Positions 5,998 through 30,014 of a stretch of DNA of 32,000 bases are shown here, in pieces. The stretch comes from Trichodesmium erythraeum IMS101. GTDB taxonomy: Bacteria; Cyanobacteriota; Cyanobacteriia; Cyanobacteriales; Microcoleaceae. The notes below the pieces were generated by a model. That model made no database searches. It was not told the origin of the DNA and was given only the letters and a program-made list of their open reading frames with translations. Position 1 is the stretch's first letter. Every line of letters begins with the position of its first letter. The stretch spans positions 2,490,001 through 2,522,000 of the forward strand of contig NC_008312.1 of the NCBI RefSeq assembly GCF_000014265.1, written 5' to 3'. Position numbers and translations under genes: made by a program.

Positions 5998-6954
5998 ATG
6001 ACAACGGTTTTAGCTATAGAAACAAGTTGTGATGAAACATCTGTGGCAATTGTTAAAAATCGTCAAGTTTTAAGTAACATTGTGAAGTCACAAATTAATA
6101 TCCATAGCTTTTATGGAGGAGTAGTTCCAGAGGTAGCTTCACGACAACATTTAGAAATAATTAATCAGGCGATCGCTCAAGCTTTCAGAGAAGCAAATTT
6201 AGACTGGCCAGACATTGATGGTATTGGAGCTACTTGCGCCCCTGGTCTAGTTGGCGCTCTGTTAGTTGGCCTGACGGCGGCCAAAACCTTAGCTATTGTC
6301 CATGAAAAGCCCTTTGTGGGAGTCCATCACTTAGAAGGTCATATTTATGCAACCTACCTAAGCCAACCCGAGTTAGTACCACCTTTTCTTTGTTTGTTAG
6401 TTTCTGGAGGTCATACCAGTTTGATTTATGTCAAAAATTGTGGGGAATATGAAACTTTAGGGCAAACAAGAGATGATGCAGCAGGAGAAGCTTTTGACAA
6501 AGTAGCTAGATTATTAAAACTTGGCTATCCCGGTGGACCTGTAATTGATAAATTAGCTGCAGAGGGTAATAAATTAGCATTTTCTCTCCCTGAAGGGAAA
6601 ATTTCTTTGCCTGGAGGAGGCTATCATCCTTATGATTTTAGTTTCAGTGGACTCAAAACTGCAGTATTGCGATTAGTCCAGAAAATAGAACAAGAAGGTA
6701 ATGAATTATTATCAGGGTCTTCAGTAACTAAAGACATTGCAGCCAGCTTTCAAGAAACTGTAGCAAAAGGGCTAACAAAAAGAGCTATCGCTTGTGCATT
6801 AGACTATAGCTTAAACACAATTGCTATTGGCGGTGGTGTAGCAGCTAATAGTAGTTTGCGACAGCACTTAAGTAGAGCAGTAGAAAGTCATAACTTGCAA
6901 GTACTATTTCCCTCACTCAGATTTTGTACGGATAATGCAGCCATGATAGGTTGT
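5998..6954 (+). CDS. tsaD: tRNA N6-adenosine threonylcarbamoyltransferase TsaD (Gcp/Kae1 family), exon 1
   Basis: [19 protein letters not shown]..., HHLEGH, ...[11 protein letters not shown]. The reading frame is then broken by GTGCG, the group II intron 5' consensus, at 6955. Start at the ATG at 5998, because the upstream extension has no TsaD similarity. Confidence 0.9.
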
Positions 6955-7551
6955 GTGCGGCTCGTTGGCCACTAAGACCAGATATTTAGGTAGAAATGGC
7001 CGTCCTAAATCAACAGATGAAGACAACCTCAGATTTATGGATAACTCTTATGACCTTGTAGGTGAAATTCCTACCGCCTCGTTGTTGGGCTGACAGCATA
7101 GACCACAGGGTAGCGAATGAACATCAATCCCTGAAGCTGGTCTAAATGCGGGACAACTTCAACTACCAGAAGTAAACTCTGCTAGCAGAGTCTGACAAGC
7201 GGACGAACAGGAAGGTAATAAAACTCTCGTAATCATCAACCACCCGCTAAGGTAGTCATGGGTGTAGGGCTGACCAGCCAGGGGGTCAATGGACAGTATT
7301 ATGCAACCGATATTGTCAACAACAATAATGCGCCCTCCGGGAGACTTTACCCCGCTAAATCAGACGCAACAAAGGCATAAGGGAACGAGAAAACCTCTCT
7401 AATACACCTAAGAATATCGCTCAAGAACTTAGGAAGCCATTCAAGGTTAATCTACGCATTTTGGACGTAGGTCTTAGAGAGAGTAGGATTGGGTAAAAAG
7501 CAGGAATGCTGACGTACCCACTTTTAGACGTAATGTAAAATAATTACTAGC

Positions 7552-8788
7552 AATGAATAAAGCTAAAACACTAAAGAGAAGACTGAATAATTCAGAGCCC
7601 TATTTAAGTGTGGCATGGAATACATACAATATATCTAATCAATTAGATGTCAACCCCAACTTTAAATGGAAAGACATAGACAGGCATTTGGCCATTGAAT
7701 AATGTGTTCAAGTTGTAAAAGTTAATTTACAAAGCATCCGGCCGTGGCGAAATCCGCAAAATGTGTAAACACCAAAAACTTTTAACCAAAAGCTATGACG
7801 CAAGGCTGTTGACTCTTAGACCATTAACTCAGGAGAATCAGGGCTAAAGAACTACGGGGATAAATGTCAGAAAAAGCCTGCCACCAAATTTCACAAATAT
7901 CTCAATGTAGCACTAAAAGCTAAAACCTTAATAAAGGAATGCTTGAAGCAAATAGGATTAAAACTCAAACCAGAAAAAACCAAGATTGGCCAAACACTCA
8001 AGGAATACCAAGGAAATCAACTCGGACTTTATTTCTTAGCATTTGAAGTGAGGTAATACGAGGTTAATTCAGCCAAGCTAGAATTTAAAACTAAGTATTT
8101 ATTACCGGAAATTAGCAGATATTTGTGATTCTCACAAATATGCCCCAGTTTCAGCCTTAGTAACTAAACTAAATCCATTAATCAGAGCAGCAGCTAACTA
8201 TTACTCAGCTCTAGTCAGTCAAGAAATATATACTAAAGTAGACTATCTCTTGTAGAAAAGGCTAGGTCAATGGGCAAGACTATTGGGATCTGAATAAGTC
8301 CGCTACCTGGGCAAAAAAAAGTATTTTCCCACAAGAGAGTTCAGAAATTAGATTCAGTTCGGATGGGAAATATACGTTAAATAAACACTCAGATGTACTT
8401 ATAGTTAAATACACTAAGCTAAGGAACGTACATTAAATAAGACCCGAAATTTGTAGTTTGTGCCTGAAAAATATATTGAGTGTCATTAATTTTCTCCGGC
8501 TTTATTTTATTCTCATTCCAAAAAGATACCAAGTCCATGACGGGGATTAGAATTATTGGAGTAATAGAATCACCAAAGCACCTAGGTATGAGGAAAGAAG
8601 TTTCAACGCTGTTGAAAATACAAAAAGGTAAATGCACATTTTGTAGATGAAAATTCAGACCGACAGATTTAATTGATATAGACCAAATTTTTCTCAGGTC
8701 TGAAAGCGCTAGTGACACATAAAAAAATCAACAAGTGTTGCACCGACATTGTCACGATACTAAAACTGCACTAGACAGGGAAGACTAG
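7552..8788 (+). pseudogene. Degenerate group II intron-encoded protein (reverse transcriptase/maturase/HNH), multiple stops, frameshifts and an internal RT deletion
   Basis: N-terminal remnant MNKAKTLKRRL...SVAWNT...FKWKDIDRH. RT-0/1-like text ...LLTKSYDARLLTLRPLTQENQG*. RT-7-like KPEKTKIGQT...LYFLAFEV. HNH remnant KGKCTFCR*KF...LIDIDQI...LHRHCHDTKTALD. No continuous ORF exists. Confidence 0.75.
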
Positions 8789-8901
8789 GCAGCCAAAAGG
8801 CTAAAAGAAAAACCTGACTTATCAGAAGGCTATCAATAGATAGACGATATGGTGATACTAGAAAGCAGGGATGTACCCATAGAAAGGGACGCCTAGGAGA
8901 G

Positions 8902-8935
8902 AAGCCGTGTGAGGTGAAAGTCTCACGCACGGTTT
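8902..8935 (+). other. Group II intron domain V (catalytic hairpin)
   Basis: AAGCCGTGT-GAGGT-GAAA-GTCTC-AC-GCACGGTTT. This is a 34-nt hairpin with the AGC triad, a GAAA tetraloop and a 2-nt AC bulge, as in the domain V consensus. Confidence 0.85.
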
Positions 8936-8991
8936 TGAAGACCAACAGGCCTTATAAAGGGTAATCTGGAAATAGGCTTGTTGAGTTTAAC

Positions 8992-9102
8992 GCTGCGGCT
9001 GACCATCTTAGTCGAGGCCATATTTCATCCCTGAACTTAGGAGCCAATTCTCGAATGGCCATTAAAGATGTGATGAAATTATACACTCTTTCATTGAGTT
9101 GA
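8992..9102 (+). CDS. tsaD: TsaD exon 2 (C-terminal 36 aa)
   Basis: AAADHLSRGHISSLNLGANSRMAIKDVMKLYTLSLS* follows the intron 3' end in frame with exon 1. AAADH.. after NAAMI(A/G)C matches cyanobacterial TsaD as I recall it. Confidence 0.8.
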   Translation, partial: AAADHLSRGHISSLNLGANSRMAIKDVMKLYTLSLS

Positions 9103-9306: not shown

Positions 9307-9843
9307 ATGAAAATCAGAAATGCCGAAGCCAAAGACTTAACTGTAATTGTAAAAATTTATAATTCCTCAATTCCTAGTCGTATTGCTACTGGAGATTTGG
9401 AACTTATATCAATTGAGAATCGTATTTCTTGGTATCAAGAACACTCACCAGATAGTCGTCCTATTTTAGTTGTAGAACTAGATGGTCAAGTTATAGCATG
9501 GTTAAGTTTTCAGTCTTTTTATGACAGACCAGCATATCAAGCTACAGCAGAAATAAGTATATATGTTGCTCCTGAATATAAAGGTCAAGGAATAGGAAAA
9601 AAGTTACTTTCAGAGGCAATTTATCGTAGTCCTCAGTTGGGAATTAAGACCTTGCTCGGCTTTATTTTTGCTCACAATATTCCTAGCTTAAGTTTATTTA
9701 ATAAGTTTGGTTTTCAACATTGGGGTTATTTACCAAAAGTAGCTGATTTAGATGGCATTAAGGGAGATTTAGTGATTTTGGGGCTTCATGTATTGGAAGT
9801 AAAAAATAAGAATAAGAGTGAGCAAGGGAATAGTCCCTCCTAG
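9307..9843 (+). CDS. GNAT family N-acetyltransferase (phosphinothricin/YncA-like subfamily)
   Basis: 178 aa. MKIRNAEAKDL..IVKIYNSSI..., and an acetyl-CoA binding Q/RxxGxG/A-type motif (YKGQGIGKKLL). Confidence 0.8.
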   Translation: MKIRNAEAKDLTVIVKIYNSSIPSRIATGDLELISIENRISWYQEHSPDSRPILVVELDGQVIAWLSFQSFYDRPAYQATAEISIYVAPEYKGQGIGKKLLSEAIYRSPQLGIKTLLGFIFAHNIPSLSLFNKFGFQHWGYLPKVADLDGIKGDLVILGLHVLEVKNKNKSEQGNSPS

Positions 9844-17250: not shown

Positions 17251-17844
17251 ATGAGTTTAGTATCTATTGAGACTCTTATTGAGGGAGCAATATCTGGTAA
17301 TTTAGTTAGCTTTCCTACTGATACTGTACCAGCACTGGCAGCTCGACCTGATCGAGCAAATTTAATTTTTCAAGTAAAGGGTCGTAGTCAAGATAAACCT
17401 GTGATTTTAATGGGGGCAAATGCTGCATCTTTGTGGCCTTATATTTGTGGAAGTGATCAAGAGTTACAGTTATGGCAAAGGGTGGCTGGAAAGTATTGGC
17501 CTGGGCAGTTGACTTTGGTGCTACCTGCTTCAGAAATGGTGCCCAGGGTAATGAATCCTGTTGAGGGAACTACTATTGGAGTCAGGGTTCCTAATTGTGA
17601 TATTGCTAGAAAAATAATGGCTCGAACAGGGCCTTTAGCTACTACAAGTGCTAATATTTCTGGCCAGCCAACTTTAGGGAAAATGGCGGAAATTAGTCGT
17701 CAATTTCCAGAGGTTTTGGTTGTTTCGTTGTCCCAAAGTGAGGAGATAATGTTAACTTCTGGAGTCCCTTCGACTGTTGCTAAGTGGAATGGAATTGCTC
17801 GTTGGGAAATTTTGCGCCAGGGAGCAGTAAAGTTAAAATTTTAA
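17251..17844 (+). CDS. tsaC: L-threonylcarbamoyladenylate synthase, YrdC-domain type (TsaC/YwlC)
   Basis: 197 aa. FPTDTVPALAA, KGRSQDKPVILM, WPGQLTLVLP, IGVRVPN, GPLATTSANISGQP. Confidence 0.85.
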   Translation: MSLVSIETLIEGAISGNLVSFPTDTVPALAARPDRANLIFQVKGRSQDKPVILMGANAASLWPYICGSDQELQLWQRVAGKYWPGQLTLVLPASEMVPRVMNPVEGTTIGVRVPNCDIARKIMARTGPLATTSANISGQPTLGKMAEISRQFPEVLVVSLSQSEEIMLTSGVPSTVAKWNGIARWEILRQGAVKLKF

Positions 17845-25728: not shown

Positions 25729-26394
25729 TCAGTCCCTGATTTCTGAACCAGTAGAAGAATTATAAGTATAAATCGTAACTTCTTGAGAACGAACTAGCTT
25801 TCCATTAAACATATACCCTGGTCTTACAGTTTCACAGATTAGATCGTCTTTGTCTGGATCCTTCACAACCCGCGTAGCCATAATTTGCTGTTGCTCATAG
25901 TTATAGCTGCCAGTATCTTCTAGAGATTGCACCCCCTCTTTTTCCAAAACTTGCCCCAACTCTTGATATAAGGACTCTAGTAATTCAGGGGTATTTGCAT
26001 TGTCTCCTGTTTTGGCGAGTAGAACTAAATCCCGTAATTTGATTAGCTCTTTCGCCGTTTCGGATAACTCTGGCTCCCGAGCAACTTCTGTTACTGGAGG
26101 AATGATTGTAGATTTTTCTAAAGCGATCTGTTCCGCAATTGCGTTATTCGCATTTGCTTCTACAGTCTCAGTTTGTGCGATCAGAATATCACCGCGATCG
26201 AGCAACCGCTCCAAAAGTAAGTTAGCTGATTTTAACAGGGAAACAGTGTTGGTGTTTCCAAAATTGTTATTTTCTGGCTGCAAGCCGTTCAACTTTCGTG
26301 CATTTGCTTCAGTTTTTATAGCCTCTTCTTTTGCTTGTTGCTGTTGCGCCATCCAGGGGCAGAAAATATTAAATATGGAAAAATCGTTAAGCAT
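25729..26394 (-). CDS. GrpE-like (nucleotide-exchange-factor fold) protein, last gene of the dynamin operon
   Basis: The C-terminal third (LEKEGVQSLEDTGSYNYEQQQIMATRVVKDPDKDDLICETVRPGYMFNGKLVRSQEVTIY) follows the GrpE pattern GV..i...G..fdp..h.a......d....v.....GY..nG+.lR.a.V.V. A coiled-coil-like N-terminal half is present. Start at ATG 26394, preceded by AGGAGG and overlapping the upstream stop (ATGCTTAA). Confidence 0.6.
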   Translation of the reverse strand: MLNDFSIFNIFCPWMAQQQQAKEEAIKTEANARKLNGLQPENNNFGNTNTVSLLKSANLLLERLLDRGDILIAQTETVEANANNAIAEQIALEKSTIIPPVTEVAREPELSETAKELIKLRDLVLLAKTGDNANTPELLESLYQELGQVLEKEGVQSLEDTGSYNYEQQQIMATRVVKDPDKDDLICETVRPGYMFNGKLVRSQEVTIYTYNSSTGSEIRD

Positions 26395-27961
26395 AGGAGT
26401 CCTCCTGTTGTGCAATTTGATAGAGTATTTGTTCGTAGGAATGGGCTATTACAGTAGCTGCCTCAATGGTCTGGCTGTCAGCACTCATATAGTCATTGGC
26501 TCTCTGTCTCCAAGACTGTACTCGTTGTTGGGCGACATGAGTCATCTCGGCATCAGTGGCATTTTCACCAAGCTCAAGTCGTGCTTTTAGGGAGGTTCCG
26601 TTTTCACCGGTCACTGCTTGAAGTTGTCTAACCTCATCCTTGTTAAAACCGAGCTCGCCCTGGTAATAACTGTGTAATACTGCCAACTGCTGAAAGCCTT
26701 GTTCCTCAACCTCCAGCCTTTCAAACTCTCCTGCTATGTCGGCGACCATCTGAAAATCTGCACCCTCTAAACGCTGTTTTTCCATGAAACAAGCTGCTTT
26801 GATTTGTTGCAATGCAACGCTCAACTTAATCAGGAAAGCGCGGTTGCCAAAGTGGGATTTAATCAAGTCTAGTAGTTCTGATGCGCCACTTCGCTGGAAT
26901 AGTTTCCGAGCTAGCAATTCCTTTTCTCTAGTTCCACTGCGGATAAGATTGGCAGCCAACCAGATTCCGTATTGTCCAAGTCGGTCTAGTACCAATTTTC
27001 TCTTATCTGCGGGCGGTATCTCTGGCTCTTTTGGATACTCGCGCTCCCTAAGTCGCGTGGCATTTTTGACCAGACTCCGAAGTCTACTTTCCGGCAGTGC
27101 AGCTAGCTGCATTAGGGTATCAAACTCTTCTGGAGTTAGGGTTTGCGCTCCAAAAGCCAGAAGACCGCATACCGGCAGTGTGGTATAAAGCGCGCCGCGC
27201 AAATGTTCGGACTGCAATCGCTCTGTGATTTCACGACCTTTGAGAATCGGTTCTTCACCGTCCGACCAGTAATCATCTACTTTAGTCAGTACTCCAATTG
27301 CATTAATTGGCGTTGCTTGTCCGAATGCAGCACCTTGAAACTCAGCCATTGTGTTTTGGCTAGATTCAGAGAAGCTTTTAGCGAATAGGTATATTACGGC
27401 ATCAGCATTAGAAGCTTCTTCCTGGGTTGCTTGCGTTAGTTCCTGACCGTGCAATTGCAGGAAGTTTTTGGTGTTTTCTGAATCAGCTTCGTAAGCTGAC
27501 GCCAAACCCGGGGTATCTATTAGGTTAAATTTCTTCAGGATAGGGTTGGGATAAGATAACTCAATGTACTTAATGCTCAGTAAGTAGTTGAAGGAATCGC
27601 TGTTAGCTTCAGCCCGTAGGGTTAGATCTTCCAGTTCTTCAAACGATTTCGGTTCTGGCGGAGAGCCATTTTTGTAATGGACTAGCAGAGATTTGGATTC
27701 ACCATATTTCAGCCAGTTGACGTTGAATGTAGCTTCTACCGTGCCGGTAGCTACTATTTTTTCCCCCAGAAGAGCATTCATCATTGTAGATTTCCCAGCT
27801 TTTATCATGCCAACTATCGCTACTCGCATTGGTAAATCTAACTGCTGGTAACACTGATCAATCTTTCGGTATAGGTTCTGCAACTTGGGGCGATTCATGG
27901 TGCAACCAAGAGCAAACTGAAATACCTCTTCAGCGCGATCGCGTAATGCCCGATTATCCAT
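26387..27961 (-). CDS. Dynamin-like GTPase 2 (BDLP/LeoA-like), soluble, 524 aa
   Basis: G1 VAIVGMIKAGKSTMMNALLG, G3 IDTPGLAS, G4 VLTKVDD, followed by a long helical stalk. Start chosen at ATG 27961, which overlaps the stop of the upstream gene (ATGGATAA). The ORF-track extension to 28105 lies inside the upstream gene. Confidence 0.82.
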   Translation of the reverse strand: MDNRALRDRAEEVFQFALGCTMNRPKLQNLYRKIDQCYQQLDLPMRVAIVGMIKAGKSTMMNALLGEKIVATGTVEATFNVNWLKYGESKSLLVHYKNGSPPEPKSFEELEDLTLRAEANSDSFNYLLSIKYIELSYPNPILKKFNLIDTPGLASAYEADSENTKNFLQLHGQELTQATQEEASNADAVIYLFAKSFSESSQNTMAEFQGAAFGQATPINAIGVLTKVDDYWSDGEEPILKGREITERLQSEHLRGALYTTLPVCGLLAFGAQTLTPEEFDTLMQLAALPESRLRSLVKNATRLREREYPKEPEIPPADKRKLVLDRLGQYGIWLAANLIRSGTREKELLARKLFQRSGASELLDLIKSHFGNRAFLIKLSVALQQIKAACFMEKQRLEGADFQMVADIAGEFERLEVEEQGFQQLAVLHSYYQGELGFNKDEVRQLQAVTGENGTSLKARLELGENATDAEMTHVAQQRVQSWRQRANDYMSADSQTIEAATVIAHSYEQILYQIAQQEDSYA

Positions 27962-30014
27962 CTGCCCAGTCCTCTCCATAATCAGCATTGCTCGGTTCGT
28001 CGATTTGACTTGCTTCCAACACCTGCGAATCCCCATCCGATTTTGGTTGAAAATTTGCCATAGTTTCGGTCTGAACGACAGTTTCCTTTTGGGAAATTGT
28101 GGCATTGGCTAGATTTTCGACGCTGTTGTAGAGTTTGTTGAGTTGCTGCAAAGGAATTGCTAGCTGCTTGAGTTTTTCTTGCTTCTCTCGCTCGGTGAGC
28201 TTGCGAGTTTCCTGAATAGAACGTAACGTGCGATCGCAATTTTGCTTTAACTGTCCGATCTTTTCGCTCAAATCATCTGTCATCGCCCGCTTTAATTGTA
28301 TAACAGTTTTATTCAAAGACTGTTGACAAAGCTCTTGACTTTCTCTGATAAACTGCTGGATGTGCGGGTTGATTTCTCTTTGAGCGGCAGCTGTATCCTG
28401 TTTCTTAACTTGGGATACTCCTTGTACTACTCCAGATGTAAGTCCCGCTATTCCACCAATTGCAGCACCAATTGACGAACCAATAACAGCTCCGGGCCCG
28501 GCTCCCACACCACCAAACAGAAAGCCGATACCTGCACCAACTGCTCCTCCTACCGCACTAGCAAGAGTTCCCCCGGCCGTAGCATTAAACATCCCACTGC
28601 GCGTTACGCTCAGGGTTTTTTCCCACCATCCTGACTTCTTAATCTCTATGCTATCTGTTGATAGTTCAGTTTTTTCCCAGTCTAAAGAGTCAAGATTAGA
28701 GATACCAAGCTCCAATCCACTTGATGTCTCAATTTGGTAATGCAAGCTGGCTGCTTTGCTGCTAACTTGCTTTCCTATGTCAGACATCAGGGTATCAATA
28801 TCCCGCTCGACCAACTTAGCAATCTCCGCTGGTTTCTCTAACAATTTGCTATCTTTCATATAGTCATTTGCCCACCCCTGAACTTTGGTAAAGCCACTGC
28901 GCAATTGAGCGGACAATTCCATGCTGATATCTTCGATACCGCGACTTAACTGCTTTTGCCAGTTGGTGTTGTCATTTTGGAGATCTTGAAAGCGTTGCTT
29001 TTCATTCTGGAACTGGCTTTCCAGCTTATCAATCTCTTCTTTGCTTTGTTGCTGGCAAGTTGACAATTCAGCCTGGATCGGCATTTTCATATCCCTTAAA
29101 GCTGGTCCCAGTTCTCCCAGAGCACGGATCAGCAAAATGTAGCCCTTCTCTTGGGTGAGTAGTTTCCCCAATTCTGACTCTAATGCTATGAAGTTGCTAT
29201 CCTCTAAGTCTTCCTCATCTTCATGCTTTAAGTAGTCAAGGTAGTTGTGGCTAGATACAGGGACGATCGGAATTTCATTGCCAGGACGCTGTAGCACTTG
29301 GGCTAGTTTTTCCCTGTTATTCGCCACGATAGTTTGGTAGTCTGCTTTAGAATCTATTTTGGTAACAACGAAGATAACGTTGGAAATAACATTAGGACAG
29401 CGATCGACAATAAATTTCAGAAATTTGAGTTCGTCTTCTGACAGAGGGTTTTTGACATCGCTAACAAAAAGGATGGCATCGGCTTCGGGGATGAAACTGT
29501 AAGTAATTCCCGTATGTTGGGTATTGAGTCCCCCCACGCCAGGCGTATCCACCAATACTAAACCATCCTTCAGTTTTTGGTTAGGCGATTCTATAACCAG
29601 CATCCGAGCTTGACGCTTGTTTCCTTTATTGAATTTCTCGTTAGCATAATTGCCTATTTCCTGGCGTTGAATTTTCTCTTTCTTTTCTTTACCTGGTTTT
29701 CCCAGGATAACCGTAATTTGTTCCCTTTCTCCGTAAGCGATCGTGGATACAATACCGGTGGCAATATCAGCATCTACCGGGAATAAGTCGTCATTGGCTT
29801 CCTTGAGAAGTGCATTAATCAAGCTAGATTTTCCTTCCTTGAACTCACCGCAGACTACAACCAGCAACTTACCCTCAAGTAGACGTTTTTGAGCTTCGCC
29901 CAGACGCCGCTCTATATCTCTGTATTTATAGGTTTTGGCAAAGGATATTGCTGATTGCAACAGCTTTAGGGTCTGCTGCTTCTGTTCCTGATATCGTGCT
30001 TGGTAGGTAGGCAT
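27954..30014 (-). CDS. Dynamin-like GTPase 1 (BDLP/LeoBC-like) with glycine-zipper hydrophobic membrane segment, 686 aa
   Basis: G1 VVVCGEFKEGKSSLINALL, G3 VDTPGVGG, G4 VVTKIDS, helical stalk. GGTLASAVGGAVGAGIGFLFGGVGAGPGAVIGSSIGAAIGGIAGLTSGVV is followed by a coiled coil and an acidic tail. RBS GAGGAAAG precedes ATG 30014. Confidence 0.85.
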   Translation of the reverse strand: MPTYQARYQEQKQQTLKLLQSAISFAKTYKYRDIERRLGEAQKRLLEGKLLVVVCGEFKEGKSSLINALLKEANDDLFPVDADIATGIVSTIAYGEREQITVILGKPGKEKKEKIQRQEIGNYANEKFNKGNKRQARMLVIESPNQKLKDGLVLVDTPGVGGLNTQHTGITYSFIPEADAILFVSDVKNPLSEDELKFLKFIVDRCPNVISNVIFVVTKIDSKADYQTIVANNREKLAQVLQRPGNEIPIVPVSSHNYLDYLKHEDEEDLEDSNFIALESELGKLLTQEKGYILLIRALGELGPALRDMKMPIQAELSTCQQQSKEEIDKLESQFQNEKQRFQDLQNDNTNWQKQLSRGIEDISMELSAQLRSGFTKVQGWANDYMKDSKLLEKPAEIAKLVERDIDTLMSDIGKQVSSKAASLHYQIETSSGLELGISNLDSLDWEKTELSTDSIEIKKSGWWEKTLSVTRSGMFNATAGGTLASAVGGAVGAGIGFLFGGVGAGPGAVIGSSIGAAIGGIAGLTSGVVQGVSQVKKQDTAAAQREINPHIQQFIRESQELCQQSLNKTVIQLKRAMTDDLSEKIGQLKQNCDRTLRSIQETRKLTEREKQEKLKQLAIPLQQLNKLYNSVENLANATISQKETVVQTETMANFQPKSDGDSQVLEASQIDEPSNADYGEDWADG

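Follow-up and report, generated by a model that had tools for sequence, protein, structure and literature searches.

The closest described counterparts of the locus treated here are group II introns of Trichodesmium erythraeum. Strain IMS101 is reported to carry roughly 24 such introns and around 100 copies of its chromosome (PMC8919778), and 17 of its introns were found to splice in vivo by Pfreundt et al. (2014, Sci Rep 4:6187; PMC4143802). Ten of the 17 splicing introns lack an open reading frame (ORF), and splicing factors encoded in trans have been demonstrated in E. coli (PMC4649490). According to PMC12584367, which cites Meng et al. (2005, J Biol Chem), the intron protein of the ribonucleotide reductase (RIR) gene assists the four introns of dnaN. 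Here we analyze a 32,000-nucleotide (nt) stretch of the IMS101 chromosome (the window; coordinates refer to it, on the plus strand unless stated otherwise), in which the tsaD gene is very probably interrupted by a chloroplast-like (IIB-type) group II intron that has kept its ribozyme, has a dead maturase gene of its own, and is spliced to yield full-length TsaD. An earlier interpretation made from the letters alone (the sequence-only reading) had proposed that a group II intron splits tsaD, which is now supported by the intron boundaries, domains V and VI, covarying domains I-III, and empty sites in relatives. It had also regarded introns in conserved host genes as rare in bacteria outside a few cyanobacteria; in T. 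erythraeum such a case is not rare, given the counts above (PMC4649490).

One entry in the published catalogue corresponds closely to this locus. Table 2 of Pfreundt et al. lists at Tery_1635 an intron without a maturase in a gene for a 'putative metal dependent protease', spliced in vivo and marked there as a prediction already present in the database of bacterial group II introns (PMC4143802). A JGI entry in the tsaD protein cluster is named metal-dependent protease. This is the old COG0533 name of TsaD/Gcp. The genomic position agrees: the Ser/Thr kinase Tery_1627 has seven WD40 repeats (PMC2176072), the kinase of this type encoded upstream of tsaD is ABG50904, and tsaD is ABG50911, so that Tery_1635 fits the position of tsaD because the gene lies seven protein accessions after Tery_1627, given one locus tag without a protein. 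The argument is strong but indirect; Tery_1635 is most likely this tsaD, and its intron was almost certainly catalogued and shown to splice in 2014.

The host gene is well defined on both sides of the intron. Exon 1 (5998-6954) provides codons 1-319; as the sequence-only reading had noted, the TsaD frame breaks where GTGCG begins at 6955, and we verified the end of exon 1 at 6954. Exon 2 (8992-9102; 36 codons, reading AAADHLSRGH...LSLS, and a stop) completes the protein, also as proposed. Splicing 6954 to 8992 gives an in-frame TsaD of 355 residues on translation, which matches the Pfam TsaD family at 1.9e-97 and scores 426.7 bits against the NCBIfam TsaD equivalog model TIGR03723 (cut-off 296.1). 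The match to this model covers residues 4-325 and thus spans the junction; the Pfam domain ends at residue 318, immediately ahead of it. The translation contains the VHHLEGH and CTDNAAM motifs, of which the histidine pair and the aspartate, respectively, are the metal ligands of the TsaD/Kae1 family. The intron is inserted nine codons past the conserved aspartate of CTDNAAM.

Uninterrupted tsaD genes occur in Okeania, Dapis, Microcoleus, and other Trichodesmium (MAG_R02, R03, and R04), supplying the empty sites that had been sought in relatives, sister species included. In these intron-less orthologues the protein sequence across the junction (NAAMIGCAAADHLSRGH) and the DNA at the site (ATGAT(A/T)GGTTGT, followed directly across the junction by GCTGC) both equal the joined exons of the window. 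Because the joined exons match uninterrupted tsaD exactly, 6954/8992 is the true junction. The intron-less Trichodesmium alleles, one of which (P0003) was found on 125 contigs, share about 90.5% protein identity with the spliced TsaD, versus 98-100% for the alleles that carry the intron, so that the insertion is confined to the lineage of T. erythraeum. The window allele itself recurs in public assemblies, in 94 blocks that come from TARA Oceans metagenomes and metagenome-assembled T. erythraeum genomes, among others.

The public annotation does not reflect this gene structure. The product of the exon 1 ORF (5998-6975) is identical to ABG50911.1, the 'O-sialoglycoprotein endopeptidase' of IMS101, and the public records, including this one, describe a protein of 325 residues that reads through into the unspliced intron and ends in VRLVGH. 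A second 325-residue read-through record bears a RecName-style name and is apparently a curated UniProt entry. The annotation is wrong, because these entries represent unspliced read-through and the spliced protein has 355 residues.

The intron occupies 6955-8991 (2037 nt), beginning with GUGCG (6955-6959) and ending with AC (8990-8991), in keeping with the GUGYG/AY rule. Domain V, a 34-nt hairpin spanning 8902-8935, contains the AGC triad (8903-8905), a GAAA loop (8916-8919), and an AC bulge (8925-8926), and domain VI, delimited by the Rfam alignment and by comparison with relatives, follows at 8939-8988. In domain VI, CAACAGGCC pairs with GGCUUGUUG and AGAC pairs with GUUU; A8984 is the sole bulged base, lying between these helices of 9 and 4 base pairs and 7 nt from the last intron base, C8991. 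The sequence-only reading had placed domain V and the bulged adenosine of domain VI at exactly these positions. Both assignments withstood comparison with covariance models: the Rfam model Intron_gpII (RF00029) recovers domains V and VI together (8900-8991) at 54.3 bits, above its gathering score of 40, with an alignment that agrees on the bulged base, and the plastid domain V model (RF04357) scores 58 bits on 8899-8939 against a gathering score of 53. The check proposed earlier, that covariance models be used to recover the intron, thus succeeded for domains V and VI.

Domains I-III were approached through relatives that retain intact proteins, because the Rfam models for domains I-IV gave no match. 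A search with the reconstructed pseudo-protein of the intron returned 389 intact group II intron proteins, mainly from Okeania and Trichodesmium, and one of the introns concerned, from Okeania (L079:2408-4928), shares 77% nucleotide identity with the window intron across its first 933 nt. From an alignment of seven intron 5' halves, RNAalifold gave a consensus of 143 pairs in which 97.3% of the cells are paired and 33 pairs have compensatory changes in both partners. The observed pairing and covariation were not reached in any of 500 shuffles, and sliding the partners by 1-3 columns lowered the paired fraction to 33-47%. The consensus defines domain I at 6961-7389, closed by the outer stem 6961-6966/7384-7389, domain II at 7393-7484 (consensus helices 19-22), and a domain III-like hairpin at 7490-7520 (helices 23-24), the last assigned by position. 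About 96% of the consensus pairs are retained in the window intron, which also has a double compensatory change of its own at 7238-7263, where CACCC/GGGUG stands for the CAUUC/GAAUG of its relatives.

Covariation also located the exon-binding sites (EBS) and their intron-binding partners (IBS) in the exon. EBS2 (ATCAT, 7232-7236), in an internal loop of domain I, complements IBS2 (ATGAT, 6943-6947), which is conserved in the empty sites. EBS1 (GCAACC, 7303-7308), in the terminal loop of the hairpin 7292-7317, forms five Watson-Crick pairs and one G-U pair with IBS1 (GGTTGT, 6949-6954), the last six nucleotides of exon 1. The EBS2 block covaries with its own IBS2 in all six introns compared, which have six different 5' exons: ATCAT/ATGAT in the window, ATCAAG/CTTGAT in L079, TGAAG/CTTCA in L085, TATGC/GTATA in L084, GCATT/AATGC in L082, and TTCCA/TGGAA in L080. 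The EBS1 loop likewise covaries with its own IBS1 in six of six, as GCAACC/GGTTGT (window), AGCTCT/GGAGCT (L079), GCCAGG/CTTGGT (L085), TTCTAC/GTAGAA (L084), TTCTAA/TTAGAA (L082), and, with the single mismatch of the set, ACTTAC/GTTAGT (L080). For EBS3-IBS3, a pairing that together with the coordination loop is specific to class IIB, the alignment held no column able to pair with the first base of the 3' exon in every relative; two of the relatives are possibly chimeric.

Two other strings had been put forward for these roles. ACAACCT at 7023-7029 is present as reported, but it is not EBS1, because it is kept in relatives with different 5' exons: CAACCTC occurs in both L079 and L085 despite their differing 5' exons, and the string is a conserved structural segment. 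The alternative string ATCATCAACC at 7232-7241 proved half right, in that its first half, ATCAT, is EBS2; the second half, CAACC (7237-7241), cannot be taken as EBS1 because AACCA is invariant among the relatives. The ribozyme of the tsaD intron, comprising domains I-III, V, and VI, both exon-binding sites, and the branch adenosine, is intact and conserved.

The protein gene carried by the intron has fared differently. No translatable gene remains, as stops occur in all frames, and a tblastn comparison with P0021, the intact 614-residue protein of the Okeania intron L079, reveals a collinear reverse transcriptase (RT)/maturase/HNH remnant in domain IV (7553-8890) that has suffered one large deletion and several frameshifts and contains 10 or more stops. 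Residues 1-111 of P0021 are recognizable at 7553-7886 with one frameshift and two stops. At the deletion junction (7886-7892) about 196 codons are gone, corresponding to residues 112-307, which hold RT blocks 2-5 including YADD. Residues 308-613 are retained, spread over three frames and interrupted by eight or more additional stops; they include a remnant of the maturase (X) domain at 8046-8330 (LNPLIRAAANYY...), with internal stops and with the RGW of the X motif changed to RAA, and a remnant of the HNH endonuclease domain and C-terminus at 8576-8890. Pfam still detects GIIM (6.2e-9) and HNH (6.9e-5). The earlier description of an intron ORF full of stops and without most RT blocks was thus accurate, and the gene is a pseudogene.

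Between these remnants lies an insertion of about 105 nt (8415-8519), seen as a 32-residue gap against P0021. An 86% identical copy stands on the minus strand at L012:8062-8166, about 1 kb downstream of the intron-less tsaD of Trichodesmium MAG_R03; the insertion is probably a small dispersed repeat. In addition, 7 of 10 environmental copies of the intron carry 26 extra nucleotides after 8091, which are lacking in IMS101, L003, L007, and L001; IMS101, L003, and L007 are identical across the intron. This indel polymorphism indicates that decay is ongoing.

The same environmental copies reveal how selection is distributed over the locus. Among the window and the 10 environmental copies, with an aberrant block of L001 set aside, 24 of 1308 sites vary in the ORF remnant. 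The ribozyme parts have 2 variable sites in 729 positions and the exons 1 in 1068, and Fisher's test separates the ORF remnant from the ribozyme at p = 0.0016 and from the exons at p = 7e-6; exon 2 has no variable site. Relative to intron-less orthologues, the ratio of nonsynonymous to synonymous divergence (dN/dS) of tsaD is 0.06-0.14 overall; exon 1 taken alone gives about 0.1 and exon 2 gives 0.1-0.43, its changes falling mostly in the variable tail. Both exons are under purifying selection, and the pattern of variation indicates that tsaD and the ribozyme are maintained by selection and the ORF remnant is not.

The block set aside, L001:11145-11426 (window 7142-7423), is a stretch of about 280 nt of domain I on a metagenome scaffold that has been replaced by sequence about 27% divergent, with an EBS1 and an EBS2 unsuited to the exon of tsaD. 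At the left edge of this block, 41 nt of the tsaD intron recur without a difference in L087, a paralogous intron and the sole one returned by a metagenome scan for the block junction. The block is either an assembly chimera, which such shared stretches would allow, or the product of gene conversion by a paralogous copy.

These results lead us to a model in which EBS1 and EBS2 would hold the 5' exon of the tsaD precursor, A8984 would attack the 5' splice site by the branching pathway, and the exons would be ligated in frame to encode the 355-residue protein. Since the intron's own maturase gene is dead, expression of tsaD needs either self-splicing or a maturase supplied in trans; the sequence-only reading had reached the same alternative, which the conserved ribozyme supports, and had recommended a search of the genome for an intact paralogous intron protein. 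Such a protein exists in IMS101: P0043, of 635 residues with RVT_N, RVT_1, GIIM, and HNH domains, is 82% identical to P0021 and, belonging to the same subfamily as the lost intron protein, is a candidate helper. By analogy with the dnaN introns, splicing would most likely be assisted in trans by a closely related maturase of this kind, from an intact sister intron in the same genome. The nearest solved relative of P0021 is the T.el4h maturase/RT of Thermosynechococcus (PDB 6ME0, 4.4e-117), so that the family belongs to the chloroplast-like IIB lineage of cyanobacteria.

We hold with considerable confidence that tsaD is interrupted by a chloroplast-like intron with a preserved ribozyme and a dead maturase and is spliced to full TsaD, and several observations weigh against this. 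A dependence of the tsaD intron on a partner maturase is proposed by analogy with the dnaN and RIR introns. The published evidence for splicing at Tery_1635 consists of only three split reads (PMC4143802). From Tery_1627 to Tery_1635 the locus tags advance by eight and the protein accessions by seven, so that one tag without a protein is required. The Rfam group-II-D1D4 models for domains I-IV produced no match to the intron at E <= 10; these models cover other bacterial classes. Finally, consensus positions are unpaired slightly more often in the window intron than in the relatives with intact protein genes.

It is conceivable, but in our view unlikely, that the intron splices autocatalytically in vivo, needs no maturase, and lost its protein without consequence. 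The full conservation of the ribozyme is consistent with this, and introns without an ORF must in any case either self-splice or use factors in trans (PMC4649490). However, in E. coli the dnaN introns, which have no ORF, depended on co-expression of a maturase (PMC12584367). Further, the stretch that immediately precedes the start codon of the intron protein is highly conserved, with zero variable sites, and it would include the usual maturase-binding region at the start of domain IV. Group II introns also generally require protein help at cellular Mg2+ concentrations. The remaining alternatives concern whether splicing matters at all. That the unspliced mRNA yields a functional truncated TsaD, made of exon 1 and the six residues VRLVGH, with splicing optional, is suggested by the Pfam domain stopping at residue 318, before the junction; yet the TIGR03723 match continues past the junction to residue 325, and exon 2 is conserved in orthologues across genera and invariant in the population, so we judge this highly improbable. 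We give even less credence to the idea that this tsaD is a dead pseudogene, with another copy serving in its place or with the synthesis of N6-threonylcarbamoyladenosine (t6A) dispensable. Such a view could draw on the public annotation, which holds only the 325-residue read-through ending in VRLVGH, and on the mere three split reads, but split reads nevertheless exist, the reading frame is kept exactly across the junction, dN/dS is about 0.1 in exon 1 and below 0.45 in exon 2, the latter shows no variation among the 10 environmental copies, and the ribozyme is under purifying selection.

The sequence-only reading had further suggested that dependence on self-splicing or on help in trans would be a point of regulation or fragility, which is an inference. 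A more speculative idea is that tsaD splicing might be limited by the maturase from an intron of another housekeeping gene, for example nrdJ or apcD. We regard this as doubtful. Were it true, the expression of that gene would bear on t6A modification and through it on the capacity for translation in T. erythraeum, a lineage-specific regulatory link not found in the intron-less sister species. Treatments with dust and iron changed the expression of several intron host genes, Tery_1635 being one of them (PMC5776111), which is compatible with maturase-limited splicing and is not proof of it.

Several related introns have features of their own. The introns L084:1900-4429 and L085:1908-4429 have in common the intron protein P0034, the 3' half of the intron, and the 3' exon, upstream of rpmH-rnpA, and they differ in their 5' ribozyme halves, 5' exons, and upstream genes; either misassembly or recombination among copies of the intron would account for this pattern. 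The paralogous intron L087 (86-2617 on the reverse complement) is full-length with an ORF of 718 residues, and its EBS1 and EBS2 regions have no complementarity to the flanking 5' exon, so that it may be an ectopic insertion or part of a chimeric contig. An Okeania intron with an intact protein gene (L080:2399-4953) starts in the last codons of an AhpC/peroxiredoxin ORF (2000-2416), and a host ORF seems to be interrupted by the L079 intron as well, so that members of this family apparently often insert into host genes.

In the remainder of the window, the gene at 17251-17844 had been identified as tsaC, the pathway partner of tsaD. It does encode a Sua5/YciO/YrdC-family domain (Pfam 3.3e-36), but its score against TIGR00057 (98.9 bits) falls under the cut-off of 123.2 for this TsaC-type NCBIfam model; we refer to it as a putative tsaC, which may encode TsaC or a YciO-like paralogue. 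The gene following tsaD (9307-9843) is ABG50912.1. Upstream are psaF, psaJ, a CN-hydrolase gene, an Na/H exchanger gene, and a fragment of an outer-membrane-protein gene (ABG50910 down to ABG50906). This fragment is a 143-residue piece of a TPS/ShlB gene in IMS101 (292-723, ABG50906), which is whole (1281 residues) in the environmental contig L004:399-4244; the comparison suggests that the IMS101 gene is a pseudogene, and its fragmentation may explain the one-tag offset in the Tery locus numbering. An adjacent pair of dynamin-family GTPase genes at 26387-30014 on the minus strand, encoding 572 and 686 residues, resembles a bacterial dynamin-like pair.

Among known systems, the group IIB family of Thermosynechococcus elongatus (T.el4h) shares with the tsaD intron the cyanobacterial chloroplast-like lineage, as seen through the P0021 match, and differs in its host and insertion sites. 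That family also has members relying on the proteins of sister copies. The chloroplast and mitochondrial introns of plants, served by MatK or nuclear maturases, are similar in that they reside in essential genes and have kept the ribozyme, lost the protein gene, and come to use factors in trans, a parallel also drawn for maturase-less introns in PMC4649490; the tsaD intron, in contrast, has a bacterial host, a still recognizable ORF remnant, and a lineage-specific distribution with empty sites in sister species. Nearer still are the dnaN introns of T. erythraeum, which lie in the same genome, in a housekeeping host, without a working protein gene and in the presence of related protein-encoding introns. 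They differ in that their ORF is wholly absent, whereas that of the tsaD intron is decayed, and in that help in trans was demonstrated experimentally for them (PMC12584367, PMC4649490). The Tery_1635 intron agrees in organism, COG0533-type host gene, lack of a maturase, and genomic position, and its published account lacks the name tsaD, the protein pseudogene, the EBS/IBS pairings, and population data. Among bacteria, T. erythraeum is the classic example of a genome with numerous group II introns in housekeeping genes, and the tsaD intron is mostly a confirmation of it; to this the present analysis adds the naming of the host as tsaD, the placement of EBS1, EBS2, and the domain layout by covariation, population data that point to selection on the ribozyme and not on the ORF remnant, and the recognition that the 325-residue public entry is a read-through product whose annotation needs correction.

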